Position numbers and translations under genes: made by a program | Shown here: positions 1 through 62,380 of the stretch, piece by piece | How the letters are laid out: each line of letters opens with the position of its first letter | How positions within the stretch are numbered: position 1 is the stretch's first letter | The notes under the pieces: model-generated | The model's input: only the letters and a program-made list of their open reading frames with translations | Told to the model about the DNA's origin: nothing | The model's database searches: none | Assembly (NCBI GenBank): GCA_964567185.1 | Contig: CAZMKZ010000002.1 | Span: forward strand, 4,466-68,465 | DNA from: an uncultured Thermodesulfobacteriota bacterium | GTDB lineage: Bacteria; Desulfobacterota; GWC2-55-46; JADFVP01 | Reading direction: 5' to 3' | DNA: 64,000 bases

Positions 1-135
1 TGTAACCGGCTTGGCAACGGCAACTTTTGGATGCGCCCTTTTAGGCACAAAGTTATTCGTTTCATTTGAGCCGCAGGCCATCACGAAAAGTGGCAAGAGG
101 ATTATAAATAAAATTTTCAGATACCTGAAGGCCAT
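1..135 (-). CDS. pilP: Type IV pilus assembly lipoprotein PilP, N-terminal part (gene continues past the window start)
   Basis: Reverse-strand ATG at 135-133 overlaps the pilO stop (TAATG). Its translation, MAFRYLKILFIILLPLFVMACGS..., has a lipoprotein signal with a lipobox Cys, and it sits directly downstream of pilMNO. Confidence 0.6.
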   Translation of the reverse strand, partial: MAFRYLKILFIILLPLFVMACGSNETNNFVPKRAHPKVAVAKPVT

Positions 136-734
136 TATTTCTTCTCCGCCTTTTCAAGCGCCCCGGGGATAAACCTGAAGGTAGTCGCCACGAAGTCGGC
201 CTTCAGATCAGGCATGCGGTTCTTATGCCCCCGGGAGATGATATCCATGGATGTAAGGTTGACTATACGCGGAAGATTACCAACCTTTACGCTGAAGTCA
301 AAGAGGCTCTCGAAACGGCCCTCCACTGACATATTTATCGGCAGGTCCGCGTAAAAACCTTTATTTACCTCACGTGAGGGCCTGAAGAGCAATATCTTGA
401 GACCGCTCTTTTTCGCGGCGTTGCTCACCGCGTCAATAAGGTCGGGTATCTCCTTTTCATTTGGAAGGCGCGCCACGGCCTCGGCGAGCCTTGCCTCCAT
501 TTCCTTTTTTTCCTTGAGGTACCTCGGAAGATCTGAGGCCACCCGCCTGTTTTCCTCAAGCTTTGCAGAGAGCCTCTGCATATCTCCCCTGAGAGTCTTG
601 ACTTCTTCTCTCTCGGGCCCGGTGAAGAACCAGTAGATTCCGCCTCCGATGAAAAGATTTATAACCACGAGAATGGCTATCTTCTTTGGAAGGGATAACT
701 TTAATATGGAATCGAATTTGTCTCTGAGCGCCAT
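135..734 (-). CDS. pilO: Type IV pilus assembly protein PilO
   Basis: 199-aa ORF with one N-terminal TM helix and a coiled-coil region, in the conserved pilM-pilN-pilO position. Confidence 0.8.
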   Translation of the reverse strand: MALRDKFDSILKLSLPKKIAILVVINLFIGGGIYWFFTGPEREEVKTLRGDMQRLSAKLEENRRVASDLPRYLKEKKEMEARLAEAVARLPNEKEIPDLIDAVSNAAKKSGLKILLFRPSREVNKGFYADLPINMSVEGRFESLFDFSVKVGNLPRIVNLTSMDIISRGHKNRMPDLKADFVATTFRFIPGALEKAEKK

Positions 735-751
735 ATGCCTGTACCGGAAAT

Positions 752-1291
752 TTATTTTGCGAGATTTATAACGAACTTGACAACATCCGCGCCAGTCTCT
801 TTTTCCTTTATCCTCTGGACCACATCAAGCTCCACTGCGCCCACCTTCAGCTCTCTCTGAAGCCGTCTCATATACTCGGCCACAACCTCGTCGTTGTAGG
901 CGTAGCCGTTAAGCGTGACAACACGGCCCTGGTCCTTGAAGGCGGAGAGCCATGCCTTTTGCGGTATGGCATTGCTCACGATTCTGAAAAGCGTGGTAGG
1001 CCCGGTACGGGCGGCCTCAAGGCTGTTTATTACCCTGAGTTTCTCTTCCACCACCTTCTTCTGCTGTTTTATCCGGGAGAGCTCGCCTACCTTTCTCTTG
1101 AGCTGCACGAGCTCATCCTGCCCGCTCACTATATTATCCTTGAGCATGCCGGCCTCGCTCCTCACTATAAAAAAATAGGCCAGTGAAAGGCTTATTACAA
1201 ATATGGTCACCAACCCGGCTATGGTAAGCTGAAAACGTATGAACTCCTTCTTTTTAGCGGCCCTTACGGGCAGAAGATTTATACGAATCAT
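752..1291 (-). CDS. pilN: Type IV pilus assembly protein PilN
   Basis: 179 aa with a short cytoplasmic N-terminus (MIRINLLP), a TM helix and a periplasmic domain. It overlaps pilM by 4 nt. Confidence 0.85.
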   Translation of the reverse strand: MIRINLLPVRAAKKKEFIRFQLTIAGLVTIFVISLSLAYFFIVRSEAGMLKDNIVSGQDELVQLKRKVGELSRIKQQKKVVEEKLRVINSLEAARTGPTTLFRIVSNAIPQKAWLSAFKDQGRVVTLNGYAYNDEVVAEYMRRLQRELKVGAVELDVVQRIKEKETGADVVKFVINLAK

Positions 1292-2358
1292 CTGTCTCCG
1301 GGCCTCCTTATGCCAAGCCCCACGCCTACGCCGAAAAATAGCGAGAGGCCCTTAATCTCATCTTCGCTCATCTCACTTACGGCAAGGTCCACGTTCCTGA
1401 AGGGGTCTATGAATTCCACCGGTATAGCGGTCTTGTCCTGCATAAGCTCCTTCAGTCCCTTTATTTGCGAACCGCCTCCGGACATATATATCTTGTTCAC
1501 GTTGAGGTCATGGCCTCCGGCAAGAAAAAAGTCAAGTGATCTCTTTACATCCATAATGAGGTTATTCGTCACAAGGGCGATGGCGGGCGCTGTCTCGGCC
1601 TCTCTATCAGACTCGCCGCTACTTGTCTTCAGGGCCTCGGCCTCGGCAAAACTGACGCCGAGCACACGCTGAATCTCTTCTGTAAACTGGTTTCCGCCCA
1701 TGGGGATGGACCTCGTAAAGGCCGTAACGCCGTCCACTATAACGGTAAGACTCGTTATGCTCGCCCCTATGTTTACCACGGCTATCATCTCGCCGGATAC
1801 GACAGGGTAATTTATCTCCATCATATTCTCAAGGGCAAAGGCGTCCACGTCTATGACCACCGGGTTCAGCCCGGCCTCTCGGAGGACACTGGTATAATCG
1901 CTGATAACGTCCTTCTTGACGGCAACGAGCATGACGTCCATCTGCCCCCTGCCCTCTGTGTCTGCGCCGAGTATCTGAAAATCGAGGTTAACCTCTGTAA
2001 CGGGAAAGGGTATGTACTGCTCGGCCTCCCACTGTATGGACTCGGCAAGCTCGTCTTCGGTTGCCGCCGGAAAGGTAACCTTTTTTATGATTACATAATG
2101 GCCAGTCAGCGCGGAAACGGCCTGATTTGTCTTTATATTCTCTTCCTTCAGGAGCTCCTTTACCGTATTGATAACGGTCATGGAGTCTATTATGGAACCA
2201 TCCACGATAGCCTCGGGCGGCAATTTCTTCATGCCTATCTTCTGTATCTGCCAGCCCTGCTTGCCCATGACCATCTGAACAAGCTTTATGGAGCTTGAGC
2301 CTATGTCAAGGGCAACGGTTTCTTTTGAACCGAAGATACCTGAAAGGGACAATGCCAT
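1288..2358 (-). CDS. pilM: Type IV pilus assembly ATPase-like protein PilM
   Basis: 356-aa actin-like protein (VALDIGSSSIKLV), the first gene of the pilMNOP block. Confidence 0.9.
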   Translation of the reverse strand: MALSLSGIFGSKETVALDIGSSSIKLVQMVMGKQGWQIQKIGMKKLPPEAIVDGSIIDSMTVINTVKELLKEENIKTNQAVSALTGHYVIIKKVTFPAATEDELAESIQWEAEQYIPFPVTEVNLDFQILGADTEGRGQMDVMLVAVKKDVISDYTSVLREAGLNPVVIDVDAFALENMMEINYPVVSGEMIAVVNIGASITSLTVIVDGVTAFTRSIPMGGNQFTEEIQRVLGVSFAEAEALKTSSGESDREAETAPAIALVTNNLIMDVKRSLDFFLAGGHDLNVNKIYMSGGGSQIKGLKELMQDKTAIPVEFIDPFRNVDLAVSEMSEDEIKGLSLFFGVGVGLGIRRPGDR

Positions 2359-2369
2359 TGGTTATCGCC

Positions 2370-2567
2370 TCACGTCTTGAAGACCTTATCCTTCTCGGAT
2401 ATATTGAGCCCCAGGGCCTTTATTATCTTACGCTTCGTATCGAGCCTGCAGGGAAAACCCTTTTCAATCCTGTCTATGGTCAGCGTCGATAGTCCCGCCT
2501 TTCTCGCAAGCTCAGTCTTGCTTAAAAGGATACGTTCTCTATACTCTTTTAATGTATTTTTCGACAT
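2370..2567 (-). CDS. XRE-family helix-turn-helix transcriptional regulator, 65 aa
   Basis: HTH_3 signature LSKTELARKAGLSTLTIDRIEKG. It lies 12 nt upstream of pilM on the same strand. Confidence 0.75.
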   Translation of the reverse strand: MSKNTLKEYRERILLSKTELARKAGLSTLTIDRIEKGFPCRLDTKRKIIKALGLNISEKDKVFKT

Positions 2568-2635
2568 AACTCAAGCACCTAAGTCACATGGCGGGATTTG
2601 CATGGCCCTCTTCATAATATGCCATGTCAGTGATA

Positions 2636-2664
2636 TTTTTATTGCATTTTAACTTAATTGTCAA
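2636..2664 (-). promoter_or_regulatory. Putative sigma70 promoter for the XRE gene and possibly pilMNOP
   Basis: The minus strand carries a perfect TTGACA at 2664-2659, a 17-18 nt spacer, and TAAAAAT. Confidence 0.4.
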
Positions 2665-2687
2665 CAGTTCTTTTAACTTAAAGCGAA

Positions 2688-2717
2688 TTATACGTAATTA
2701 TGTATAATTACGTATAA
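2688..2717. promoter_or_regulatory. Perfect 13-4-13 AT-rich palindrome, a candidate operator
   Basis: TTATACGTAATTA-tgta-TAATTACGTATAA. It contains TGTATAAT and lies about 25 bp upstream of the predicted -35, between the pilX-like stop and the XRE gene. Confidence 0.5.
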
Positions 2718-2824
2718 AAAAACCCTCTTTCTTATCTCCTCAGATGCCATGCTTCAGGTGATTTATCAGGGGTCAATGCGCTTATTTTTCTTCAACTCAA
2801 TGTTTCCTTTTCATCCGGGTCTCT

Positions 2825-2847
2825 CCCCGCCGGCCTTGCCGGCGGGG
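2825..2847 (-). terminator. GC-rich stem-loop, a possible terminator of the minor-pilin operon
   Basis: A 10-bp perfect stem (ccccgccggc / gccggcgggg) with a 3-nt loop, about 50 nt downstream of the pilX-like stop. It has no clear U-tract. Confidence 0.3.
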
Positions 2848-2895
2848 AGGTTCCGGCATCTTATGCATATATGAGAAAGGGCGAAGCCTCTACTC

Positions 2896-4575
2896 TCAAC
2901 TTAGCTCCCTCCATTCCCTTCTCTCAATGGTCATGGTTCCGTAGTCCTGCCACCCCTGCGGCAGGTTCGTAACTGGTGTGTAGGTAAAGTTGGCGCTGGT
3001 ATTGCCGTCTCCGCCTACGTCAAGCTCACCGGGCTCTTCCGCCTCATTGCCGACAAGAAGGGTACCGTTCATGTTGAAGGTGGCCATTGTATTTGCTCCA
3101 TGGTCGTGTTCGGCCTCCACCTCCATCTCTTCGGTGGCTATTACTACGGCGCCGTTGACGGCGGTGCCCACGTTCACGTTAATGTCGCTGTACTCGGCCT
3201 TTATTTTTACTTCCTGGGCCACTAGGGCAAGGCTGTTGGCGGGCTTGAAGTTCATGGTGCCGGCCCCGCCCACTATCTCAAACTCGCCGGCCGGCTGGGA
3301 GTTGTTGGCCGCAGTGCCCACAAGTATGCTGGCCGTTATGTCCACCGAGGCATTGGAATCCGCTGGGCCAAAGAATTTAAAGTCATCCTGCGGGTCTATG
3401 ATGTTGACAACGCTGCTCGTGTAACCCGCGCCCGTGGGGTTGGTGTAGCTGTTGAACTGGTTGGCGTTCATGAAGGGCTCATCATCCTTGAGCTCGTCGG
3501 TACTAAAGGAGTAGGAACCTGACGTGCCCGAGCATGAGCCGATTACACCGTTCCAGTTCGGGTCCGTGCACCAGTAGACCGTATGGTTATAGGTCCCGTG
3601 ATGGTCATGATGATGGTCGCCGTTACAGGTGGTGCATACGGCCTGCACCGTGGCCTGCACCGTATAACTCGTTCCCATGGTGGTTATGGCGTAGTTTATG
3701 GGCCACTGCGTGCAGTTGGACCCGCAATCCGATGTGCTTCCCACCGCGGGCGTCATCATGAAGACCTGCTGATCCGCGAAGTTGGCCTGATTCTGATAGA
3801 AGGCAAAGTCAAGGACCGGCGGCACTACCACGGCGGCCGCGTCGTCACAGGACTGGAATTTGCCGCTGTTGCAGTTCGGCGTGATTTTTTTGTTGGATTG
3901 GGCCAGGGCCGCGCCAAGGTCGAAGTTGCCCTGAAGGGCAATCTCATTGCCGCCGTACATCTTGCCCGTGAATTTGCCGGGGTTGGAGCCTACGCCTTCA
4001 CCCTCGATACTGCCGTTACTGAATGCGGCGTAATCAAAGGCCGTTATGGCGTTTCTTACGATAAGGCCCGCCTTCCGCGTAACACCGTTCACGCTTCCAG
4101 TTGCCTCTACAAGAACGTCATTGGGGCCAAGGGTGGTATACTTATCGGGACGCGTGGAGTTAACACCCCTCCCGTAAGACCCGTTGGCGTCATAGACCTG
4201 TATGGCATAGGAGCCGTTAACAGCGCCCATGGCTATGGTGCCCTGTGTCTGGGCGGCCCACTGTGCGGCGTCGTCGGCGAGATTGCCGTCCTTGTTAAGA
4301 TCAGGGGCCCAGTCCGGGTCGTTTCTTATGTAGTTAATGGCGTTGCTCATGCCTGCCTCTGCCGTATTAAGGGCCTGCATGGACCTTGTTACATTACCGG
4401 CCACCTTCACATCCGTTGTGGAGGTGGTGATAATGGCCGCGCCGATAACGGCCATTATGCCCATTATCATCAGGGTTATGGCAAGGACCACACCCCTCTC
4501 GTCGCCGAGAAACCCGGCTATGGATATGCCGGCCTTTCTTTTTTTATGCTCTCTAACAGTTCTCATCATTATCAC
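2896..4575 (-). CDS. pilX: Giant PilX-like T4P minor pilin, 559 aa, with a Cys-flanked His-rich cluster
   Basis: The N-terminus matches the PilX_N pattern (hydrophobic segment, then AGN and AEAG). The long Thr/Ser/Gly-rich C-terminal extension includes CTTCNGDHHHDHHGTYNHTVYWC. Confidence 0.65.
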   Translation of the reverse strand: MIMMRTVREHKKRKAGISIAGFLGDERGVVLAITLMIMGIMAVIGAAIITTSTTDVKVAGNVTRSMQALNTAEAGMSNAINYIRNDPDWAPDLNKDGNLADDAAQWAAQTQGTIAMGAVNGSYAIQVYDANGSYGRGVNSTRPDKYTTLGPNDVLVEATGSVNGVTRKAGLIVRNAITAFDYAAFSNGSIEGEGVGSNPGKFTGKMYGGNEIALQGNFDLGAALAQSNKKITPNCNSGKFQSCDDAAAVVVPPVLDFAFYQNQANFADQQVFMMTPAVGSTSDCGSNCTQWPINYAITTMGTSYTVQATVQAVCTTCNGDHHHDHHGTYNHTVYWCTDPNWNGVIGSCSGTSGSYSFSTDELKDDEPFMNANQFNSYTNPTGAGYTSSVVNIIDPQDDFKFFGPADSNASVDITASILVGTAANNSQPAGEFEIVGGAGTMNFKPANSLALVAQEVKIKAEYSDINVNVGTAVNGAVVIATEEMEVEAEHDHGANTMATFNMNGTLLVGNEAEEPGELDVGGDGNTSANFTYTPVTNLPQGWQDYGTMTIERREWRELS

Positions 4576-4620: not shown

Positions 4621-7600
4621 TCAGTTACAGCTCGTAGTTGACTGGGTGGTATTCTTATCAATGCCCGTAATACCGCAGTTTGCGTCCGTAAAGGCGCTCC
4701 TTGAAGCCGTGAGGCTCACGTTGATGGTCTTGTCATGATAGAGCTGGCCGGCGGCATATGTATATGTGCCGGGGTTCTGGCTGTCCTCCACCATTGTGCC
4801 GGTCTCCACCGTAGCGGCAGGCAGGCCCGTTATCACCGCCGATATCTTGGCCCCTGAGACAGGTAGCGAGTTTTCATCGGTAAGCACCACGGTGAGGCTC
4901 ACATTCTGGCCGCCGCTTCCGGTCCTGTCAACGGTCATGGCCTCCTTGAACCTCGAGTCCTGGTCATATGTATAGATACCCACGGAGGGCTCGGGCTGGA
5001 TATCATAATTGGCGTTGCTGTCCGTCATCATTACGTAATACCAGACCCTCTTGCCCGTGAGGGTTGGGATATGACTTGATGTGCAGGCCCCTGAAGAGGC
5101 CGTCTCATATGTATTTGTACTGCCCACCTGGCACATGGTAACGGCATTCCACCCTGAGGGAGTCGAGGAATAATCCGTAGCCGGAGCGGAAAAAGTAGTC
5201 TTATCCGTTGTGCTGTAGTAGAGCGTAGCCCCGGTTACAGCTATGCCGGTATCAGGGCTCACCGTGTCCTCAACGCTCACGTCATAGGATGTCCATGTGT
5301 AATTAGGGTCCTGGGTCCCCGTCTCCACGGTTACGTTCGCCGGGTTCACATTGGATATAGTGGGTGTTACGGGCCTGTCCTGCACGCTACCCGTTATGGT
5401 GGGTCCTACGGTCACGGGCACGGTAAAGGTGCTCGAATTGCAGGCCGCGCCGTCAAGGTCATTTGTATAGTTAAGGGTTACTATTATATTTTCGGAGCGC
5501 ATGTCCACGTAACCGGTCCCCGCGGAATCCCTGAAGTCGAGGGTGAACTCGTTGAGGCCCGTCGAGCCGTTAAGCCTCCTCAGCGAGGCCGTGGGCTCAA
5601 AGGTGGCAAAATCAACTACAAAGCCCGATGCCACGTCCGTATTGTTCCAGAGCGTATTGGCGCTGCCGCCAAAGGGTTTTAATACTACCTTGTGGAGCTT
5701 TGCCGTAGCATTGGCCCAGACAAAGGTAGCCGAGTTTATGGTAACAGAGCTATTTCCCGTGTTCTGTATCCCAATGGTTACCACGTTGTGCTGACCGCCG
5801 TTCAGCGGCGGGCTCACCGTGCCCGAAGTTACTACGGTGATAGCGGGATCCCAGGTTATGTTTGTGGGCATGACCGTCACCTCGGGGGAACTTGCGACGC
5901 TCTCATTAAGGGCGCAGTCAAGGGCCTTCACCGTGTAATAATAGGTGGTGCCCGCCGTTACCGTACTGTCGGCGTAACTCGTTGCCGTTACAGGCATGGA
6001 GTTGATCTTGGTATAAGGGCCGCCCGAAGTTGTGGCCCTGTACACATAGTACCCCACCACGTCGTTCTCCGAGGCTGGATTGAAGAGGTTTCCGTTCTCA
6101 CTGCCCGCAGAGGCCGTCCAGTTAACCGTGGACGTTGAGCACGTGGCCGTGGTAAGACTCGCCGGCGCCGATGGCGGCCCATAGTGCTTGGAGCCGGGCG
6201 AGCCGTCGCCGCAGGGGGCGGCCGTGGCCAGAGACGTGGCCCCTGCGCTGAAGTTTCCGCACCTGTCGTAGGCAAAGGCCCTGTAGTAATAGGTAGTGCC
6301 GAGGTATATCCCGTACGTATCTATAAGGGGATAGGTCTGCGCGGGAACAAGGGGCTCATAGTCCTTTACGTTGTTTGGTCCCACGGCGCCGGAGTCCTGC
6401 GCGCTCACGGGATACTGGTCCGTTCTTCGCAGTATCCTCACACCCTTGAGATCCGTGTCCGTGGGCGTTGCGTCGCTCATATATATCTTGTCCGAGGCCG
6501 GAACCGCAAGAAAGGGCGTGGGGTCGGCAGGCGGCACGGTCTCAAAGGGGCTCGTATTTGTCAGGCCGCTTGTGGGCGTGTCCGTGCCGCTCTTGGAACC
6601 ATCACCATAAACACCGCTCTGCATTGACAAGTTCTTTTCATTACCGGCGCAATCCCAGGAAAGAACCCTGTATATGAAGGGATAGGAAGGACAATTCGTT
6701 ACGGTAATATCGGCGTAGGTCAGGTGAGTGGAATCCAGCTCCGCCACCTGCGCGTATGTATCCCCGCCGTCATCGCTCCTGTAGACATGGTAGCCGCCCG
6801 TGTCTACGGAGACGCTGGGGTCCCAGGTCAGGGTCACAAGGCCGTCGCCGGCCGTGGCGTCAGTATTCGTCGGCAAATCAGGGCTCGTAACGTCATTTGG
6901 CTTTGTGTCCGCGGTTCCGCCCGTACCCGATATGGGCGTGGTAAAGGAGGTGTTCACATTGCCCGATGTGTCGTAACACTTCATGGCTATGTCATATTGA
7001 GTGCCGTTGGTAAGGCCCGTAAGGGTATAGGACTCCGTGGACCCGCCCGGAATATCTATAAGGCCCGTATAAAAACCCGCTCCAGTCGGCTTGTAATACA
7101 CCTTGTACCCCGCGGCGTCGGAGCTTGAGCTCTTTGTCCACGCCAGGTTAAGCCTGCCGCAGAGACCCGGGTCTGTTGACTGAATATTGGTGGGAAGGGC
7201 GCACTCCGTAACGTCCGTGGATTGCTGTATCCCCATGCACCTTAGCGAAACACTTGTTTCGAGGTTTACGGTATCTATCTTGTTGGTAGCTGGGTTGGGG
7301 TACTCCGTGGAGGCCGTAAGGGCTATGCCCACCCTGCGTATCCTGTCCCTGTTGGCCTGCGACTGTATGGGGGCCGGGATAAGCGCGCCCGTTTCGTCGT
7401 AATAGGTAAACTGAAGCCCCGTGATGTTGCCAGCAAGGTCAACGCCTGTGCCGTAGGCCCCGTAGCTGCTGCCGCTCCATACGGCGGAACTCCTCATTAA
7501 CTCTTTTGCCGCCGCGTCAAGCTCGTACTTTATCTTCCATGGTCCCAGATTGGGGTCAGGGTCCGAGTCGGACTCGAACTCAAGGACAGTGGAGTCGGCT

Positions 7601-7839
7601 GTGTTAATGGGCGTGTCCTTGTAATAACACCCGGCGGCACGCACCTCTTTGACCACCTTCTCCATGGTTATCCTGGTCTCCTGCTGTATCTCAAGGAGCC
7701 TGTCCTGACCCGTGGAGGCTCGCAAAAAATAATTATAAAGCGAGTAAACCGCCCCTATGACGGCCACGCCTATGGCCATGGCCACGAGAAGCTCTACAAG
7801 GGTGAAGCCTTTATCTCTTTTTAAAAGACGTATGTTCAT
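4621..7839 (-). CDS. pilW: Giant PilW-like T4P minor pilin, 1072 aa, with FN3-like repeats
   Basis: The N-terminus KGFTLVELLVAMAIGVAVIG is a prepilin cleavage/methylation motif followed by PilW-like sequence. Downstream are at least three FN3-like modules and many Cys pairs. Confidence 0.7.
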   Translation of the reverse strand: MNIRLLKRDKGFTLVELLVAMAIGVAVIGAVYSLYNYFLRASTGQDRLLEIQQETRITMEKVVKEVRAAGCYYKDTPINTADSTVLEFESDSDPDPNLGPWKIKYELDAAAKELMRSSAVWSGSSYGAYGTGVDLAGNITGLQFTYYDETGALIPAPIQSQANRDRIRRVGIALTASTEYPNPATNKIDTVNLETSVSLRCMGIQQSTDVTECALPTNIQSTDPGLCGRLNLAWTKSSSSDAAGYKVYYKPTGAGFYTGLIDIPGGSTESYTLTGLTNGTQYDIAMKCYDTSGNVNTSFTTPISGTGGTADTKPNDVTSPDLPTNTDATAGDGLVTLTWDPSVSVDTGGYHVYRSDDGGDTYAQVAELDSTHLTYADITVTNCPSYPFIYRVLSWDCAGNEKNLSMQSGVYGDGSKSGTDTPTSGLTNTSPFETVPPADPTPFLAVPASDKIYMSDATPTDTDLKGVRILRRTDQYPVSAQDSGAVGPNNVKDYEPLVPAQTYPLIDTYGIYLGTTYYYRAFAYDRCGNFSAGATSLATAAPCGDGSPGSKHYGPPSAPASLTTATCSTSTVNWTASAGSENGNLFNPASENDVVGYYVYRATTSGGPYTKINSMPVTATSYADSTVTAGTTYYYTVKALDCALNESVASSPEVTVMPTNITWDPAITVVTSGTVSPPLNGGQHNVVTIGIQNTGNSSVTINSATFVWANATAKLHKVVLKPFGGSANTLWNNTDVASGFVVDFATFEPTASLRRLNGSTGLNEFTLDFRDSAGTGYVDMRSENIIVTLNYTNDLDGAACNSSTFTVPVTVGPTITGSVQDRPVTPTISNVNPANVTVETGTQDPNYTWTSYDVSVEDTVSPDTGIAVTGATLYYSTTDKTTFSAPATDYSSTPSGWNAVTMCQVGSTNTYETASSGACTSSHIPTLTGKRVWYYVMMTDSNANYDIQPEPSVGIYTYDQDSRFKEAMTVDRTGSGGQNVSLTVVLTDENSLPVSGAKISAVITGLPAATVETGTMVEDSQNPGTYTYAAGQLYHDKTINVSLTASRSAFTDANCGITGIDKNTTQSTTSCN

Positions 7840-7841
7840 CT

Positions 7842-8288
7842 CTATCTCGCTATGTAGGTCCTGAATATGGTATTGTGCGACCCTACGGCGTCATTCCATA
7901 CCACCTTTACGGCAATGTCCTTGGCGTTTACGGGAAGGGCGCTATTGGTTATATAGGTCTCTCTCCTGAAAGAGGCGTGCCCCGCGATAGTGCCGAAGTC
8001 CTCTACCTGGTCCGGATTCACGCCGGCCAGGGGGTCGCTTGCCGCCACGGAGTCTACCACGCTGTCAAAGTTCAGCGCCGCGGTGCGCTCTATGCTCTCT
8101 ATGGTCTCACGTGCGAGGTTGGCGGCCTCAGTGGCGCGCCGTCCGTAATCCGTACTCCTTATAGTGCTCGTCATAAGCCCTGAGAGCGTTATAAGGGCCA
8201 CGCTTAGGATTACTATGCTTATCATTACCTCTATGAGCGTAAAGCCTTCTTCTCCTGAAACAGCTTTTTCTTTCATTAGTTTCACCAT
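7842..8288 (-). CDS. pilV: Type IV pilus minor pilin PilV
   Basis: EEGFTLIEVMISIVILSVALITLSGL, a class III signal followed by the PilV-type hydrophobic segment. 148 aa. Confidence 0.75.
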   Translation of the reverse strand: MVKLMKEKAVSGEEGFTLIEVMISIVILSVALITLSGLMTSTIRSTDYGRRATEAANLARETIESIERTAALNFDSVVDSVAASDPLAGVNPDQVEDFGTIAGHASFRRETYITNSALPVNAKDIAVKVVWNDAVGSHNTIFRTYIAR

Positions 8289-8905
8289 GCCGTTAATATC
8301 TTCACGCGGCCGCTTGCCGATGATACGGTAACCTTGTACTTGTCCGCGCTGTTGGCAGAGCCGTTCAGCTTTATCTCGGCAAGGGTGGCCGAGCCAAAGG
8401 GGTCAAAGGCAATTACCGCCGTGGTTCCGGTAGTATATGTAACTCCCCCTACGGTGACGCTGAATATATTCACTCCAGCCTCAAGGTCTTTTGCCGCTAT
8501 CTGCGGGTCCGCTGTCCATGGGTCCGTATCAGCGGCCCTTGTTACTACAAGATACCTCTTCGGAGCGGCGTCAAGGTCAAAACGCACGCCATACTTCTGC
8601 GTTGAGTTCACCGCCTTGCTCCTTGCGTACTGGAGCATGGAAAAGATATCCCTTGATGTGCTCTTGAGTTTCATATGGGGAAAGGTGGACGTCAAGAATG
8701 TAGGCGCGGCTATGGCGATGAGGGTGCCGAATATGGCCAGGACCACGAGTATCTCAACGAGGCTGAAGCCTCTCTGTGCCTTTTTCCCCCACCGGCGCGC
8801 CCTTCCGGAGCACCTGAGGGACAAAATCCCCATGAGGCCGAAAGCCCCTTGCAGGGGCGCCGCCGGAATACCGGCCTGTCTTCTGTTATCAACTGAACTC
8901 TTCAT
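8282..8905 (-). CDS. FimT/GspH-like T4P minor pilin with an unusually long (about 45 aa) leader
   Basis: QRGFSLVEILVVLAIFGTLIAIA pilin motif. A strong SD (AAGGAG) sits 7 nt before the ATG at 8905. An alternative internal start at MGILSL cannot be excluded. Confidence 0.65.
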   Translation of the reverse strand: MKSSVDNRRQAGIPAAPLQGAFGLMGILSLRCSGRARRWGKKAQRGFSLVEILVVLAIFGTLIAIAAPTFLTSTFPHMKLKSTSRDIFSMLQYARSKAVNSTQKYGVRFDLDAAPKRYLVVTRAADTDPWTADPQIAAKDLEAGVNIFSVTVGGVTYTTGTTAVIAFDPFGSATLAEIKLNGSANSADKYKVTVSSASGRVKILTAW

Positions 8906-8947
8906 AAAATACTCCTTACCATGGGTATATTCCCGTCATATAAACAA

Positions 8948-8962
8948 GCAACACCTGTGCCA
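8948..8962 (-). promoter_or_regulatory. sigma54 (RpoN) -24/-12 promoter for the minor-pilin operon
   Basis: The minus strand reads TGGCAC-AGGTG-TTGC, an exact consensus with 5-nt spacing. The predicted TSS near 8937 is about 30 nt upstream of the 8905 start. Confidence 0.75.
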
Positions 8963-9079: not shown

Positions 9080-10432
9080 TCAGAGACCGTAGGTCTTTAT
9101 CTTGTACAGAAGCGCCCTCTGGCTTATCTCCAGGAGCTCAGCGGCGCGGGTCTTGTTGTTCTTGGTGGCCTCAAGGGCCCTCTTTATAAAGTCCCTTTCC
9201 ATGGCCTCGTGGGCCTTTTTAATGGAAAGGCCCACTGAAGACCCATCTCCGGGGTCCACCCTCGGTGAGGATACGCCCATTGGAAGAGATGACTTTTGTA
9301 TGAGATTGGCCTCCTCAAGTATCATGGCCCTCTCAATGACGTTCTCCAACTCGCGGACATTGCCGGGCCAGCCGTACTTCAGCAGGGCCCCAAGGGCGTC
9401 CTTCGAGAGGCCCTTCACCTTTTTTCTGAACTTTTTCGCGTACTTGCCGGTAAAATACGCGGCAAGCCTCTCTATATCTCCGGGCCTCTCCCGAAGCGGA
9501 GGCAAATCTATCTCAATGACGTTAAGCCTGTAATAAAGGTCTTCCCTGAACCTGCCCTTGCGTATCTCCCCGGCAAGGTCCTTGAGCGTGGCCGCCACTA
9601 CCCGCGTATCTATCTTCACGGACTTTGTGCCGCCCACACGCCTTATCTCGCCCTCCTGCAGGACGCGCAGGAGCTTTACCTGAAGCTCCATGGGCAGTTC
9701 GCCCACCTCGTCAAGGAATATGGTGCCTCCCACGGCCTCCTCGAAGAGCCCGGCCTTGTCGCGTCTGGCGTCCGTAAAGGCGCCCTTCACATGACCGAAG
9801 AGCTCGCTCTCAAGAAGGGGGCCGGGTATGGCCCCGCAGTTGACCGCCACAAAAGGCCCTCCAACGCGCTCCCCGCAGGTATGCAGGGCACGGGCCACAA
9901 GCTCCTTGCCCGTGCCGCTCTCGCCGCTTATGAGAACGGTGGTGCTGTAACTGGCTACCTTCTTTACAAGCTCCAGTATATCAAGCATCCTCGCGTCAAC
10001 GGTTATTATGTTATTAACGTCAAAACGCCGGGCAACCTCCTTCTTGAGCCTCCTGTTCTCCCGCTTGAGCTTTTCCCTCTCCTCGGCCTTTCTGAGGGTA
10101 AGTATAATTTCATCGGACTTGAAGGGCTTGGAGACGTAATCATAGGCCCCGAGCTTCATGCACTCTATGGCCGTCTCAATAGTGCCGTAGGCGCTCATCA
10201 TGATAACGGTATGATCTCCCGTCTTGCTCTCCTTGAGGGATCTAAGAAACTCAAGGCCGTCCATCTTGGGCATGCGTATGTCGCAGAGGATAAAGTCAAA
10301 GTCATCGGAGGCCAGGGCCTTGAGGGCGCGTGAGGCGTCTGCAAAGGCAGTGGCGTCATAACCCTCCCTCTTAAGCATTAAAGAGAGCACATGGCGCAGG
10401 CTCTCCTCGTCGTCTATAATCATAACATTCAT
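9080..10432 (-). CDS. pilR: Sigma54-dependent response regulator, NtrC family, PilR-like
   Basis: Receiver domain (IIDDE...DIRMP), AAA+ sigma54 activator domain (GESGTGKELVARALH, GAFTDA), and a C-terminal Fis-type HTH. Confidence 0.85.
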   Translation of the reverse strand: MNVMIIDDEESLRHVLSLMLKREGYDATAFADASRALKALASDDFDFILCDIRMPKMDGLEFLRSLKESKTGDHTVIMMSAYGTIETAIECMKLGAYDYVSKPFKSDEIILTLRKAEEREKLKRENRRLKKEVARRFDVNNIITVDARMLDILELVKKVASYSTTVLISGESGTGKELVARALHTCGERVGGPFVAVNCGAIPGPLLESELFGHVKGAFTDARRDKAGLFEEAVGGTIFLDEVGELPMELQVKLLRVLQEGEIRRVGGTKSVKIDTRVVAATLKDLAGEIRKGRFREDLYYRLNVIEIDLPPLRERPGDIERLAAYFTGKYAKKFRKKVKGLSKDALGALLKYGWPGNVRELENVIERAMILEEANLIQKSSLPMGVSSPRVDPGDGSSVGLSIKKAHEAMERDFIKRALEATKNNKTRAAELLEISQRALLYKIKTYGL

Positions 10433-11967
10433 CTTTGTCCCCTCCCGCAGGGCAATCTTACCGTAAAGGTAGAGCCCTCTGCCACCTTTGATTCAAAATC
10501 TATCTGCCCGCCGTAGGTCTTCAGGATGCTCTCTGAGACAAAAAGACCGAGCCCCGTGCCTTTTCCCACCTCTTTGGTCGTATAAAAGGGGTCGAATATC
10601 TTTCTGGCGTCTTCCTCGCTTATGCCGGTGCCGCTGTCCTTTATCCTTACGGAGACAAAATTCCGGTAGATCTCCTCTCCGGCGCGCAGGGGTTTGTCGC
10701 CCTTGCGCCTGCGAAGATTCGCGCCCTTGACGGGCATCTTCTGGAGCTGTGACTCCACCACTATCTCTCCGGCGCCGTCGGCGGCGCTCATGGATTGAGC
10801 AGCGTTTACGAGGAGATTGATAAAAACCTGCCTCAGCTTGCCCTCGTTTATCTTTACCGCAGGAAGGCTATCGCCAAGGCTGGTCTTAAGGACAATATCC
10901 TTGAAATCGGGATGTCCCTCAAGGCCGGCGATACTCTCAAGGAGCAGGGCGTTCACGTCAACAGGCTGAAGGGGTTTTTTCTCGGCCCTTGAAAACTCCA
11001 GAAATTCCCTCAATATGGAGTCTATCCTCGTAACCTCCCTGCCCGCCCTTACTATTATATCCTTCTCATCGGCGCTATCAAGAGAGCCGCTCTCAAGTAT
11101 CTGAAGATACCCGCCCACGGCTCCCAGCGGGTTGCCTATCTCGTGTGCTATACCGGCGGCAAGCCTTCCCACGGCCGCCAGCGTCGAAGACCTAAGGACC
11201 TCTTCCTGCGCGCTCACAAGCTCGCTATTGACCCTCTCAAGGGTGTTTATCTCCTCCTCTATTTTCCCGGCCATCTTGTTAAAAGACGAGGCCATAAGAC
11301 CTATCTCGTTATCGGAGTGTATATCCACCCTCTCGCCAAATGACCCTCCGGCGATGCGTGAGGCCGCCTCGGTGAGCCTTCTGATGGGGTTTATGATGGA
11401 GCCGGAGAGAAAGAAAAACCCGAAGCCTATTATTATGGCGCTATCCAGTATGATGTAGATTATAAGGAATTTTTTCACCCCCGCGAGCTCGCCCTTGATA
11501 TCGGCAAGCGAGATGGTGAAATCGAGGCGTCCCGCAATGGGCCCGCCATCCTTGAAGACGGCGCTTACATTGAGCAGACGCCCCGGCCCGGCCAGCCATC
11601 CGCCGCCAAGACGCCTTATCCTTATGCCGTCAAGCGCGCTTAGGGCCTTGCCGCCCCCCTCGGGCAACTCACCTTCTTTTACAACAATACGGCCCGATGG
11701 CGTGGTAAGGCGGTAGTCCCTTACCCCGGCACCGCGCATGACAACGCCGAGGAGCTGTAATGCCTTGTACTCATCGAGCCAGGGGCTTAACTTCGCCATG
11801 GATTCCCTGGCGAGGCGCGCCGTCTTTTCCGCCTCGCCGACCTTCCAGTAAAGGGCCCTCTCCTCTACAATCTTAATGCTCATGAGCCCTATGAAGCCCA
11901 CACCCGCAAGGGTGATAAGGGCGATTCCAAGCCCGAGCTGGGCGCGTATGCCTATCTTGAGGTTCAC
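10429..11967 (-). CDS. pilS: Sensor histidine kinase, PilS-like
   Basis: Two TM helices, HAMP, a HisKA H-box (AHEIGNPL) and HATPase_c (GTGLGL). It overlaps pilR by 4 nt. Confidence 0.8.
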   Translation of the reverse strand: MNLKIGIRAQLGLGIALITLAGVGFIGLMSIKIVEERALYWKVGEAEKTARLARESMAKLSPWLDEYKALQLLGVVMRGAGVRDYRLTTPSGRIVVKEGELPEGGGKALSALDGIRIRRLGGGWLAGPGRLLNVSAVFKDGGPIAGRLDFTISLADIKGELAGVKKFLIIYIILDSAIIIGFGFFFLSGSIINPIRRLTEAASRIAGGSFGERVDIHSDNEIGLMASSFNKMAGKIEEEINTLERVNSELVSAQEEVLRSSTLAAVGRLAAGIAHEIGNPLGAVGGYLQILESGSLDSADEKDIIVRAGREVTRIDSILREFLEFSRAEKKPLQPVDVNALLLESIAGLEGHPDFKDIVLKTSLGDSLPAVKINEGKLRQVFINLLVNAAQSMSAADGAGEIVVESQLQKMPVKGANLRRRKGDKPLRAGEEIYRNFVSVRIKDSGTGISEEDARKIFDPFYTTKEVGKGTGLGLFVSESILKTYGGQIDFESKVAEGSTFTVRLPCGRGQR

Positions 11968-11982
11968 GGGAATAAGACCGCC

Positions 11983-12768
11983 TTAAAAACCTTGAGTCAC
12001 ACTTCTTATATACCACTCTATCAAAGAGCCGCCATAAAAAAAATAAACCGTCGCGCCTATGGCCAGAAATGGTCCGAAGGGCAAGGCGTATTTACTGTCC
12101 CTTGAAAAGAGGACCATGACGGCGACACCGGAGAGCGCCCCGATAATAGAGGCGCTAAAGAGCGTAAAGAGGACGCCCTTCCACCCGATAAAGGCGCCTA
12201 TCATGGCAAGAAATTTAATGTCCCCCACACCCATGCCCTCCTTGCCCGTAAGGTAGTGATAGACAAGGGCTATGCTTATGAGTATGCCGCCTCCGGCCAC
12301 TATGCCCGTAAGAGAGTCCACCACGCCCGGGGCGGGCATGAAAAAAGAGGCTATAAAGCCTATTACTATGCCGGGAAAAGTAATGACATTAAGGATAATC
12401 TTGTATTTCAGGTCTATGAAGGTACTTACGATAAGGGCGCAGAGGAAGAAAAACGGGATTACAATCCTCACATCCGGGCCGTAGCGGTAGTAGAGCGCGA
12501 TGGCGGCAAGACCGGTCAATGCCTCCACAAAGGGATATTGAATAGATATGGGGCTCTTGCACCGGCTGCACCTGCCGCGAAGGAGCAGATAACTGATAAT
12601 GGGTATATTACAGTAAAAGGGTATATACCTCTTGCAGACCGGGCACCTCGATGGCGGCGAAACGATGCTCAAGCCCTCGGGAAGGCGGTATATGCATACG
12701 TTAAGAAAACTGCCCACTATTGCACCGAATATGAACGGCAGGGCGAGGATAAGGTATTGCGGATACAA
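11983..12768 (-). CDS. pilD: Prepilin peptidase/N-methyltransferase PilD (A24 family)
   Basis: CPVCKRYIPFYCNIPIISY...RCSRCK zinc tetracysteine plus a polytopic membrane domain. Confidence 0.85.
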   Translation of the reverse strand: MYPQYLILALPFIFGAIVGSFLNVCIYRLPEGLSIVSPPSRCPVCKRYIPFYCNIPIISYLLLRGRCSRCKSPISIQYPFVEALTGLAAIALYYRYGPDVRIVIPFFFLCALIVSTFIDLKYKIILNVITFPGIVIGFIASFFMPAPGVVDSLTGIVAGGGILISIALVYHYLTGKEGMGVGDIKFLAMIGAFIGWKGVLFTLFSASIIGALSGVAVMVLFSRDSKYALPFGPFLAIGATVYFFYGGSLIEWYIRSVTQGF

Positions 12769-59525: not shown

Positions 59526-60551
59526 TTATTTATCGTGACAGGTTCTGCAGACTCCGCTACCGGTATTGCCGCCAACCCTTCTAAGGAAAAAGCCGTCAAC
59601 GCAATCCTCGCCGCTGCACCAGAACTGAAAAGAGGCTCCGTTCGAGTGATTGGCATACTGGTATGTGCTGTCCACCTCATCGTAGCTGAGGTTACGGAAG
59701 TGCGGGTCGTGGCATGAACTGCACTCCACCTTGTTGTTCCTCAAGAGAGAGCCTATGGTAGCCGTGCTTGAGATAAAGCCCGATACGGCCCAACGGTTCT
59801 GCGAGAGGTTGTTAACAAAAAAAGGCGTTGTATTAAGAAGGCCGGCAGAGAGGTCGATATTGCCTATTACTGTGCTCGTAGGCCTGAGGCTCGCCTTTGA
59901 TGAGGCCGAGTAAGGTATGGAAACGGGGTGGTCGTTTGAAAGGTCAACTCCAATATTGAGGCTCTGCACCGTATCTCCGGTGGCAAACGACGGACTTGCG
60001 CCATGGCATGTAAGACAACTGGTGGGGCTTGTAGGTGTATTAGTATTAAAATGGTCAAAATCAGTGCTTTGATAAGTAGTACCCGGCATGCTGAAGGACC
60101 AGTTCTGGTCTGCGCCTCCCGGCACAACGCCGCCCTTACCCGGGGCGTTTACAAGGCTATCGAAGGTAGTGACGCCGTCATGACAGCTCAGGCAGGCCAG
60201 TGTTGCCCCTCCGAGGTCGGCGCTATTAACGTTGGTTCCGGCTATGGTGGAACCATAGCCGATATAGCTTGATGAGTTGGCAGTAGACCTGTTCCAGAGA
60301 GGGGCTGCCGTTGTATTGGAATGATGGGGAGTATGACAAAAGATACATACCTGAGTAGTGGCGCCTGTCCTTAAAACCCTGCCGAATTTGCCAAGGTTGT
60401 GCCTTGACATCAGGATGCCATTGGCCACTACGCCATCCGGATAATCGGACACCGTGGTAGCCGCCGATGAGATACCCGGCCCTAAAAACACTACGGCCGT
60501 AAGCACCGCTATGGTTGTCAATAATAATCTTTTCATAATATTATCCCCCAC
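59526..60551 (-). CDS. Secreted pentahaem c-type cytochrome
   Basis: Signal peptide plus five CxxCH motifs (CIFCH, CLSCH, CLTCH, CSSCH, CRTCH). Confidence 0.85.
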   Translation of the reverse strand: MGDNIMKRLLLTTIAVLTAVVFLGPGISSAATTVSDYPDGVVANGILMSRHNLGKFGRVLRTGATTQVCIFCHTPHHSNTTAAPLWNRSTANSSSYIGYGSTIAGTNVNSADLGGATLACLSCHDGVTTFDSLVNAPGKGGVVPGGADQNWSFSMPGTTYQSTDFDHFNTNTPTSPTSCLTCHGASPSFATGDTVQSLNIGVDLSNDHPVSIPYSASSKASLRPTSTVIGNIDLSAGLLNTTPFFVNNLSQNRWAVSGFISSTATIGSLLRNNKVECSSCHDPHFRNLSYDEVDSTYQYANHSNGASFQFWCSGEDCVDGFFLRRVGGNTGSGVCRTCHDK

Positions 60552-60853
60552 CCATACACTAACAGCCGCCCTACTTTTTTATCGGGTTTCCACAACGCCT
60601 GATCTCTGAAAAAATAAAAAAGCCATCCTTACGACCTGTGCGGCTCGTAGAATGGCATTCATTACCCCGCGCCCTTAAGCCCTCCATGAGCGTAAGGATC
60701 TTTATGTACAAACACTATCTTAATTAACATTTTAATGATTTGAGGTCAAAAGTCAAGACAAATTTATCTTTTTTTAATAAAAATTATAAATTATTTTAAA
60801 AAAACCGCCCAACCACCCTTTTTTTGAAAGAAAAGTGTAATCAGCGGTAGCCC

Positions 60854-62380
60854 TCATGAAAAGGACTTTAATTTTCTGCATCTCTTCGGATGTCTCAGCT
60901 TTCGGAGCGCCTTTGCCTCTATCTGGCGTATCCTCTCCCTTGTTACCTCAAAATAGGCGCCCACCTCCTCAAGCGTATGGTCCCTTGTCTCGCCTATGCC
61001 GAACCTCATCCTCAGGACCTTTTCCTCTCTTGGCGTAAGCGTTGAGAGGACCTCGTTCATGCGTCCCGTAAGGTCATTGAGCATCATCTCGTCATGGGGG
61101 ACAGAGGCGTCCTTATCCTCTATGAAGTCTCCGAGAAGGCTGTCCCCGTCTTCTCCCACAGGCGTCTCAAGAGAGATGGGCTCCTTGGCCATCTTTAGGA
61201 TCTTTCTCACCTTATCCACGGGCAGGAGCAGGGACTCTCCGAGCTCTTCCACGGTTGGCTCCCTGCCGCGGTTCTGCACAAAATAATGAACCGTGCGAAG
61301 GAGTTTATTTATGGTCTCTATCATATGGACCGGTATGCGTATGGTCCTTGCCTGATCCGCTATGGCGCGCGAGATGGCCTGACGTATCCACCATGTGGCG
61401 TATGTGGAAAACTTGTACCCGCGCCTGTACTCGAACTTCTCTACGGCGCGCATCAGGCCTATATTGCCTTCCTGGATAAGGTCCATGAACTGCAGGCCCC
61501 TGTTCAGATACCTTCTCGCTATGCTCACCACAAGGCGGAGATTGGACTTTATGAGCAGTTCCCTTGCCGCCCCTATCTCGTGTTCATGAAGACATATGGC
61601 AGTAAGCGTATTCCCCAGGCCCTCATAGTCAAGGCCCACCCTGGCGGCAAGCTCCTCTTCTCTCTTATGGTTCTGCCGGGCCTCACACATCACATCCTTA
61701 ATGGTCCTGCCGCGCAACAGCGGCCCTGCCGGACCCTTGCCGCCTTTTTCGGCGCGGGCCACCATGTTCTCAAGGCGCCGTATCTTTCTCCTTATCCTCT
61801 TGAAATCCCCCTCATATCCCGTAAGCCTCTCAATGGACGCTCCGAAGATATTACTGCGTTTATCTATGTCAAGGAGAAGGTTAAGGCACTTCTCTGTCGG
61901 TCTCTTGCCGGCCTTCCAACTTGCCGCGGACCTGCCGTAAATCTTCTTTATATTATCTATCTTATGGAATACATCCTGAAGGTCTGACTCCGCCTCGCTT
62001 AAAATCCTCTCATCGTCGTCATATTCTATTACCTCACGGCCCTCGGAGCTTTTCCCCCGTAGCCTCTCCTTAAGCGAATCAAGTTCTTCTATTATCACCT
62101 TCGTCTTCAGCAACTCTATGGCCACGCCGAACATGCCCTGCTCAACGGTCCTGGCAAGACGCACCTCTTCGTCCCGCGTAAGGAGCCGTACGGCACCCAT
62201 CTCTTTCAAGTAGGCCCTTACAGGGTCTTTGACGGCGCTGGGCTGCGCCACGGCAAGGGGCGGGGCGGACTGAATGGGTTCGGAGGCCACAGGCCTTGCG
62301 GGCATGGCCTTGACTGCCTTCTTATCCCCCTGCATATCTCTTGATCTAGCCATAATAAAAGTATCGAACCATACAGGCAA
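60854..62380 (-). CDS. rpoD: RNA polymerase sigma factor RpoD (sigma70)
   Basis: Regions 1.2 through 4 are present. Confidence 0.95.

Follow-up and report, generated by a model that had tools for sequence, protein, structure and literature searches.

Small helix-turn-helix (HTH) proteins that regulate their own genes from palindromic operators are a known kind of control system, and what is known of how type IV pili are regulated centres largely on two places, the pilin gene, which PilS/PilR control with sigma-54, and the minor-pilin operon. To our knowledge, little has been described of any transcriptional control dedicated to pilMNOPQ. We analyse here a palindrome upstream of a small XRE-family gene that precedes pilM in a 64-kb stretch of DNA (the window, whose coordinates are used throughout) from an uncultured Thermodesulfobacteriota bacterium. 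The centre of this palindrome, a dyad of the form AATTA-N4-TAATT, and the adjacent XRE gene point to a widely conserved, so far undescribed means of controlling pilMNOPQ. No description of the XRE-pilM pairing or of the dyad was found in the literature searched, the coverage of which was incomplete and offers no proof of novelty.

The closest described regulators each share part of this arrangement. CylR2 is a preformed dimer that sits on an inverted repeat of ~22 base pairs (bp). In Enterococcus faecalis it acts as a repressor binding the cytolysin PL promoter (PMC3709268). The XRE protein of the window is like CylR2 in length (65 amino acids versus 65-66), has the same five helices and terminal strand pairing, and finds in it its best structural match. 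It is unlike CylR2 in that the latter belongs to a Firmicutes lantibiotic-toxin system, has no significant sequence similarity to XRE and works with the membrane protein CylR1, no such partner being seen at the XRE locus. The Cro and repressor proteins of phage 434 recognize a 14-bp operator, ACAA-N6-TTGT. They share with XRE the HTH_3 family and a matching fold, and their operator, like the dyad, is a 14-bp element in which the outer bases are conserved and the central spacer is free to vary. The half-site sequences differ, the dyad lies at ~-74 rather than overlapping the promoter, and the XRE locus has one strong site plus a weak phased array where 434 has three spaced operators.

The C proteins of restriction-modification systems (C.BclI, C.AhdI and C.Esp1396I) are likewise small HTH_3 dimers and among the top fold matches. 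C proteins autoregulate through paired dyads just upstream of their own gene, a strong distal and a weak proximal site, with a C-box consensus of the GACT-N3-AGTC type. This consensus is unrelated to the dyad studied here, there are no restriction-modification genes at the locus, and, unlike the proximal C-box, the proximal 'site' here is a match with 2-3 mismatches only. A fourth comparison is with phased A-tract or UP-element DNA, which the region resembles in its 10-bp-phased A/T tracts upstream of a sigma-70-type -35 hexamer and in its high predicted curvature, but from which it differs in that specific hexamers are kept in GC-rich genomes and the distance to the promoter varies by lineage.

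From the comparative evidence set out below, the conserved centre of the palindrome is most likely the binding site of a dimeric regulator. We put at about 0.5 the probability that the dyad is an operator, most probably one at which an XRE dimer autoregulates XRE-pilMNOPQ. XRE is favoured as the binder because it is the sole factor known to accompany the site in all lineages, because the site vanishes where the protein changes and because the protein has the right fold. A preliminary description of this DNA had proposed the palindrome as a likely operator; that proposal is borne out in so far as the dyad looks selected, lies upstream of a conserved promoter, tracks an XRE subtype and is next to a gene for a protein with a predicted repressor fold, but it needs amending in that the unit is the centre of the palindrome and the site is at ~-74.

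The palindrome and its conserved centre

Positions 2688-2717 form a perfect inverted repeat of 30 bp, TTATACGTAATTATGTATAATTACGTATAA. The perfect 13-4-13 dyad reported earlier, TTATACGTAATTA-tgta-TAATTACGTATAA, is present there exactly, and its symmetry is one pair longer than had been described, 14-2-14 (TTATACGTAATTAT-GT-ATAATTACGTATAA). In a scan allowing up to 3 mismatches, with 100 dinucleotide-preserving shuffles as control, the palindrome was a single copy in the 64 kb even with 3 mismatches, and matches were found in 0/100 shuffles. It does lie in an AT-rich island, with a G+C content (GC) of 32-34% over 2501-2800; the accompanying claim of a GC-rich genome was too strong, as the surroundings have ~50-60% GC and the genome is therefore only moderately GC-rich. 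The exact XRE protein also occurs on Joint Genome Institute (JGI) metagenome contigs with the same gene order, of which L001, L002, L004 and L005 are identical in this region and L003 has diverged; the closest named records are uncultured Thermodesulfobacteriota metagenome-assembled genomes. The elements in and around the palindrome are the following.

2716..2722, minus strand: T7 run, directly 5' of the dyad on the coding strand with an overlap of 2 nucleotides (nt), its fixed distance to the promoter conserved
2688..2717, no strand: 14-2-14 palindrome, a lineage-specific extended form of the conserved dyad, identical in L001, L002, L004 and L005
2695..2710, no strand: core dyad and proposed operator O1, made up of TAATTA (2695-2700), N4 and TAATTA (2705-2710), with the 14-mer AATTA-N4-TAATT at 2696-2709
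2685-2690, no strand: third hexamer, GAATTA (array part 2685..2699), forming with the middle hexamer a second exact AATTA-N4-TAATT match at 2686-2699
2671..2681, minus strand: TTAAGTTAAAA box, at ~-53 to -43, kept in relatives
2659..2664, minus strand: -35 hexamer TTGACA, with TTGACAA invariant in 14/14 relatives
2647..2657, minus strand: second copy of TTAAGTTAAAA, between -35 and -10, in this lineage only
2635..2641, minus strand: -10 region, TAAAAA with a 17-nt spacer or AAAAAT with 18 nt, AATAGAAATAT in relatives
2571..2591, minus strand: block CCATGTGACTTAGGTGCTTGA of the 5' untranslated region (UTR), nearly invariant and containing the Shine-Dalgarno sequence AGGTG
2370..2567, minus strand: XRE/HTH_3 gene of the 'RIEKGF' subtype, 65 amino acids, Pfam HTH_3 3.1e-07, predicted CylR2-like fold

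Conservation was assessed in a close clade of 14 distinct promoter sequences (XRE identity 78-100%), aligned freely and anchored on the -35 hexamer. The core dyad recurs with 0-1 mismatch at the same offset in 13 of these 14. The hexamer at 2695-2700 reads TAATTA in 13/14 sequences and its partner at 2705-2710 reads nAATTA; the two TAATTA hexamers lie 10 bp apart centre to centre, that is, one helical turn, and the 4-bp spacer between them is variable (TACA, AGCA, TGCT, AACA, TGCA, TATG, GACA and CATA). On the coding strand, the conserved elements are the T-run, AATTA-N4-TAATTA, TTAAGTTAAAA, TTGACAAnTA, AATAGAAATAT and the 5'-UTR block CCATGTGACYTAGGTGCTTGA, and the remaining intergenic DNA is mostly unalignable. 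The outer arms of the palindrome are not conserved across the 13 other distinct relatives. Their outer 7-8 pairs are complementary in this lineage alone, with partial complementarity in L003 (13/15) and L174 (12/15) and 6-9/15 in the others. By these alignments, the functional unit is the 14-16-bp centre TAATTA-N4-TAATTA and not the 30-bp palindrome, and the perfect symmetry of the outer arms is, on the same reading, lineage-specific and not required. The 30-bp palindrome was also considered as a unit in its own right and rejected, as its outer arms drift and apparent compensatory changes in L174, L086 and L003 failed the shuffle control.

The same palindrome could form a hairpin, acting as a terminator or 3' end of the pilX-like operon, as a small RNA element or as a DNA cruciform. 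Its arms fold at -11.7 kcal/mol on either strand (z ~-4.5 to -5), and it is positioned after the pilX-like gene and beside the T7 run. The orientation is unsuitable: on the coding strand T7 (2722..2716) comes before the stem, and on the other strand it is A7 that comes after, so that neither has a stem with a U-tail; the stem is almost all A-T, and a terminator scan finds nothing here. When the whole dyad was tested as a pairing scheme, paired cells amounted to 70.1%, as against 70.2% on average after shuffling, and 98/500 shuffles reached the observed covariation score. With no covariation signal there is no evidence of selection for base pairing, and the relatives retain the hexamers only. 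Rfam matches in the window were at chance level, and no match in six related loci reached the gathering threshold. A terminator or RNA hairpin was rejected for the missing U-tail, the lack of covariation and the lack of an Rfam match, and a hairpin of any of these kinds is very improbable. The T7 run, which follows a weak stem upstream of the palindrome, is possibly a terminator tail or possibly a piece of the A/T-tract array described below.

A further explanation concerns the motif embedded in the palindrome. As had been claimed, TGTATAAT is found at 2701-2708 on the plus strand and contains a perfect TATAAT (2703-2708), which could serve a divergent or antisense promoter. Its TG abuts TATAAT directly, whereas an extended -10 would read TGnTATAAT; it lacks an upstream -35 and was not reported by the promoter scan, and there is no plus-strand gene downstream. 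The critical second base of TATAAT falls in the variable spacer and TATAAT is not kept in relatives. This candidate was dropped on those four grounds (no -35, out of register, no gene and not conserved) and is hardly credible, even less so than the hairpin. The dyad was also compared, by visual inspection only, with consensus sequences for Fur, IHF, Fis and LytTR, and no convincing match was seen.

The XRE promoter and its phased A/T array

A minus-strand promoter downstream of the dyad had been described and was recovered by the promoter scan, as TTGACA (2664..2659) and, after 18 nt of spacer, AAAAAT, which ends at 2635. The gap from the end of the dyad to the -35 is 23 nt, and that from the dyad centre (2702.5) is 38.5 nt, which places the centre at ~-74 from a start inferred near 2628. 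Boxes phased at 10 bp (TAATT/TAAGT) run from the T7 run to the -35, at offsets -55/-45/-35/-25 in all close relatives. Measured from the T of TTGACA, the matches in this register have 0 mismatches at -45, 0 at -35 and 2 at -25 (AATTCGCTTTAAGT), a pattern common to all close relatives. The TTAAGTTAAAA box at 2671..2681 would act either as a UP-like element or, reading AATTC-GCTT-TAAGT with 2 mismatches to the core, as a weak proximal half-site.

These features suggest how the proposed autoregulation could work. An XRE dimer made from the adjacent gene would bind O1 and thereby autoregulate XRE and the co-transcribed pilMNOPQ. Dimers nucleating at the strong O1 site (~-74) could extend cooperatively toward the -35 through the weaker sites in the 10-bp register, to ~-48.

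The array also admits an explanation that involves no dedicated protein, in which the phased AATT/T-tracts form curved, UP-like DNA that aids RNA polymerase and the palindrome is a by-product of self-complementary hexamers repeated in tandem every 10 bp. A/T boxes do recur with a 10-bp period between the T7 run and the -35, and in a wedge model, which is indicative only, the 63-bp segment centred at 2712 is the second most curved of the 64 kb, within the top 0.1%. The most curved such segment, at ~60778, has no TAATTA pair, so promoters here may in general have AT-rich, curved DNA upstream. Left unexplained by this account are the exact conservation of the hexamers, the persistence of a dyad of A and T alone where the upstream DNA of the genome has 58-72% GC, and positions of the dyad that range from the 5' UTR to -74; the dyad also lies beyond the usual -40 to -60 range of UP elements. 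We regard it as distinctly unlikely.

The region around ~60778 (within ~60700-60830, minus strand) contains a T-run, a long A/T tract and TTGACT/TTGACC, and lies between rpoD (60854-62380), on its upstream side, and a multihaem cytochrome gene (59526-60551), on its downstream side. Its general layout resembles that of the XRE promoter, minus the TAATTA hexamers. The nearest match to AATTA-N4-TAATT in the window, at 60782, belongs to this different AT-rich promoter, and no regulon-like copies of the motif were found in the 64 kb.

Several smaller features accompany the promoter. The exact 11-nt direct repeat TTAAGTTAAAA flanks the -35, with its copies 24 nt apart, and the upstream copy alone is kept in relatives; TTAAGT-type repeats are also seen near the XRE promoters of L085/L164, L058 and L146. 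The related sequence YAAGTY (TTAAGTT / CTAAGTC / CTCAAGTC) is mildly enriched, at 3 copies versus 0.48 expected (P~0.012). As an XRE half-site common to both of the XRE subtypes described below it lacks a dyad partner, and this idea was not adopted. The 5'-UTR block CCATGTGACYTAGGTGCTTGA is nearly invariant in the 14 relatives, a conservation that far exceeds the needs of a ribosome-binding site. Its reverse complement, CTCAAGCAC-CTAAGTCAC, recalls the motif CTCAAGTC of the EAG-type relatives described below, and a 7-bp long-range stem (ACAUGGC/GCCAUGU) is predicted at the block, with weak covariation.

The dyad and XRE subtypes across lineages

A structure model of the XRE protein, built with 43 homologues, has a mean predicted local distance difference test (pLDDT) score of 89.6 and shows five helices with a short contact between N- and C-terminal strands. 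In a Foldseek search of the PDB, CylR2 was the top match over the full length (template-modelling (TM) score 0.87, 32% identity), followed by HipB, C.BclI, 434 Cro, DdrO, SinR, C.AhdI and C.Esp1396I. A sequence search against solved structures gave nothing significant, with sub-significant matches to HipB and 434 only. As modelled, then, the protein has the fold of dimeric repressors that bind inverted repeats.

Protein searches returned 2221 XRE homologues, and of 173 metagenome and genome loci, 166 have a PilM homologue directly after the XRE match. XRE is more conserved (58-75% identity) than PilM (~33-53%), and its core is nearly invariant in L006-L173 (SKxELARKAGLSTLTIDRxExGxxCRLDTKRK). 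The homologues fall into two subtypes at the end of the recognition helix, LTIDR(I/V)EKG(F/Y/M), the type found in the window, and LTIDR(V/I/L)EAGRP (hereafter EKG and EAG). When the 700 nt upstream of the XRE domain were scanned for AATTA-N4-TAATT with at most 1 mismatch, the dyad was present at 34 of 35 R(I/V)EKG-type loci, the exception being L009, with only 219 nt of upstream sequence, and at 0 of 134 EAG/ESG/EGG-type loci. Beyond the close clade, the EKG set includes L064, L058, L085/L164, L109 and L146 (both Myxococcota), L169 (Polyangiales) and L171 (Sandaracinaceae). The dyad thus tracks the XRE subtype over at least 8 lineages with upstream GC of 34-72%. Chance matches were rare in shuffles of the more GC-rich upstream regions (0/2000 for L169, 72% GC; P=0.0055 for L171, 58% GC), and P was 0.015 for L085 and 0.027 for L109.

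Within each locus the dyad occurs solely at the XRE promoter, barring one extra match in L146. A search for further copies had been suggested in the preliminary description; apart from that one match, the dyad recurs at the XRE promoters of other loci and no copy was found elsewhere in the 64 kb or, across the ~600 kb of loci fetched, away from an XRE promoter. It is always just upstream of, or inside, the TTGAC-type promoter of the gene that contains the XRE domain, at a distance that varies. From dyad centre to -35 there are 38.5 nt in the clade of the window and ~16-20 nt in L085, L169 and L171, and in L109 and L146 dyad and -35 are contiguous. The L058 dyad follows a putative TTGACA-type promoter and immediately precedes the start codon, and that of L064 is an array of four hexamers. 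Relative to the predicted promoter, the position of the dyad is therefore fixed inside the close clade and not across deeper lineages. Such variation in the distance to the -35 fits a diffusible, site-specific binder better than curvature, a UP element or a phase-dependent activator. In the four Myxococcota loci L109, L146, L169 and L171, the XRE domain is C-terminal in a longer open reading frame, with an N-terminal extension of ~80-150 residues that looks low-complexity and charged, and it is this longer frame, rather than the XRE domain, that the dyad precedes.

The same positions bear on the sign of regulation. Negative feedback is slightly favoured, because in other lineages the dyad touches the -35 (L109 and L146) or follows the promoter (L058).

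Several observations weigh against an operator bound by XRE. In the window, the site is centred at ~-74 without overlap with the core promoter, which does not lead one to expect simple repression by occlusion; contact with the -35 is seen in L109 and L146 alone. The half-site lacks G and C, an unusual composition for major-groove readout by Arg or Lys, and the strong predicted curvature of the dyad region offers a role that is independent of protein. In our own alignment to the 434 repressor, the predicted base contacts (K17, T28, L29 and R33) are the same in the EAG subtype, and the only consistent differences between EKG and EAG proteins are K36 and F38. Given that the contact residues are shared and the dyad is absent from EAG promoters, either the EAG proteins do not autoregulate, or K36 and F38 matter, or another factor binds. 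A related argument, that GC-rich relatives without the dyad mean that XRE cannot bind it, is not decisive, as the dyad follows the subtype, and is kept among the points on this side. A neighbour-joining tree of PilM bears on both sides. In favour of the operator, the EKG loci are no single shallow clade and occupy at least 4 deep branches that are about as distant from one another as from the EAG loci (BLOSUM62-based similarity of PilM ~0.36-0.59 among EKG lineages), and the EAG loci form one large group. The simplest history on this tree would be that the EKG subtype and the dyad are ancestral and that one radiation lost both together. Because a single evolutionary transition could suffice, the association between subtype and dyad, though striking, is weak as statistics.

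These points leave room for a different protein at the dyad, either a dimeric activator working from ~-74 or a minor-groove binder of paired A/T tracts, with XRE acting elsewhere. The unchanged contact residues of EAG proteins, whose promoters lack the dyad, would fit such a protein, as would half-sites of A and T only and a centre at ~-74, which is typical of upstream activators. A CRP-like dyad, TGTGA-N6-ACACA, is found 27-28 nt upstream of the promoter motif in ~51/121 EAG loci, so an upstream dimer site recurs. However, a different binder must then have been kept in Thermodesulfobacteriota and several Myxococcota lineages and have disappeared at precisely the change of XRE subtype; the lineage-variable distance to the -35 speaks against a phase-dependent activator, and the lack of further copies in the 64 kb or the ~600 kb of fetched loci gives no sign of a wider regulon. 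We consider a different binder unlikely, though less so than curved DNA alone, and continue to prefer XRE as the protein that would occupy the dyad.

EAG-type promoters have an organization of their own. CTCAAGT is found in 117 of 121 GC-rich upstream regions and is followed by GCCGATA at a fixed spacing, giving a consensus CTCAAGTCCCcG.AAc.gCggGCCGATAc ~90 nt before the XRE start (for example, L007 at ~1560-1680, L015 and L016). The motif resembles a sigma-28/FliA-type promoter, TAAAGTTT-N11-GCCGATAA. De novo searching found no universal dyad in the EAG clade.

Tentatively, these distributions can be joined into a broader history that we hold to be possible but doubtful. XRE and AATTA-N4-TAATT would form an ancient autoregulatory switch that sets expression of pilMNOPQ, the alignment and secretin genes of the type IV pilus, in Thermodesulfobacteriota and several Myxococcota lineages and that was replaced wholesale in one large Myxococcota radiation, with the changes K36A and F38R, loss of the dyad, and gain of a sigma-28-like CTCAAGTC-N13-GCCGATA promoter and a CRP-like site. 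If XRE and the dyad do form an autoregulatory switch, it would provide a testable handle on the dosage of the pilus machinery in mostly uncultured sulfate-reducer and myxobacterial lineages.

Neighbouring genes and the minor-pilin operon

All genes around the dyad are on the minus strand, and the intergenic region from XRE to the PilX_N gene measures 328 nt. XRE does precede pilM, as had been stated, although the gap to the pilM ATG at 2358 is 11 nt rather than 12 nt. The genes and elements on either side of the XRE promoter region are the following.

135-734, minus strand: pilO, part of the pilMNO run after XRE
752-1291, minus strand: pilN, part of the same run
1288-2358, minus strand: pilM, first gene after XRE
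2823..2849, minus strand: GC-rich 12-3-12 hairpin CTCCCCGCCGGC-AAG-GCCGGCGGGGAG, after the pilX-like gene, strong and without a U-tail on either strand
2896-4575, minus strand: PilX_N protein, 559 amino acids, with a His-rich stretch DHHHDHHGTYNH
4621-7839, minus strand: N-methyl and fn3 pilin-like protein, 1072 amino acids
7842-8288, minus strand: PilV-like gene
8282-8905, minus strand: GspH/FimT-like gene, which opens the minor-pilin operon
8962..8947, minus strand: sigma-54 promoter TGGCACAGGTGTTGCT, a perfect TGGCAC-N5-TTGCT ~40 nt before the FimT/GspH-like gene
9080-10432: NtrC-type response regulator (Response_reg, Sigma54_activat and HTH_8), directly upstream of the sigma-54 promoter
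10429-11967: HAMP histidine kinase, beside the NtrC-type regulator
11983-12768: prepilin peptidase, beside the histidine kinase

In L001, pilP and pilQ come next after the pilMNO run. The preliminary description had suggested that the XRE protein or another dimeric regulator could couple expression of pilMNOP to the minor-pilin operon. This suggestion found no support, as the operon has its own sigma-54 promoter and NtrC-type regulator, and no copy of the dyad lies elsewhere in the 64 kb. In those EAG-type relatives whose raw sequence was read, what precedes XRE looks like the start of a divergent response-regulator gene and not of a minor-pilin gene.

Two further observations concern the minor-pilin side of the intergenic region. 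The PilX_N and N-methyl/fn3 minor pilins are unusually large. Pairing of the GC-rich hairpin at 2823-2849 is kept through changes in both arms in relatives (for example, L003, L087 and L091), and this hairpin may be a 3'-end stabiliser.

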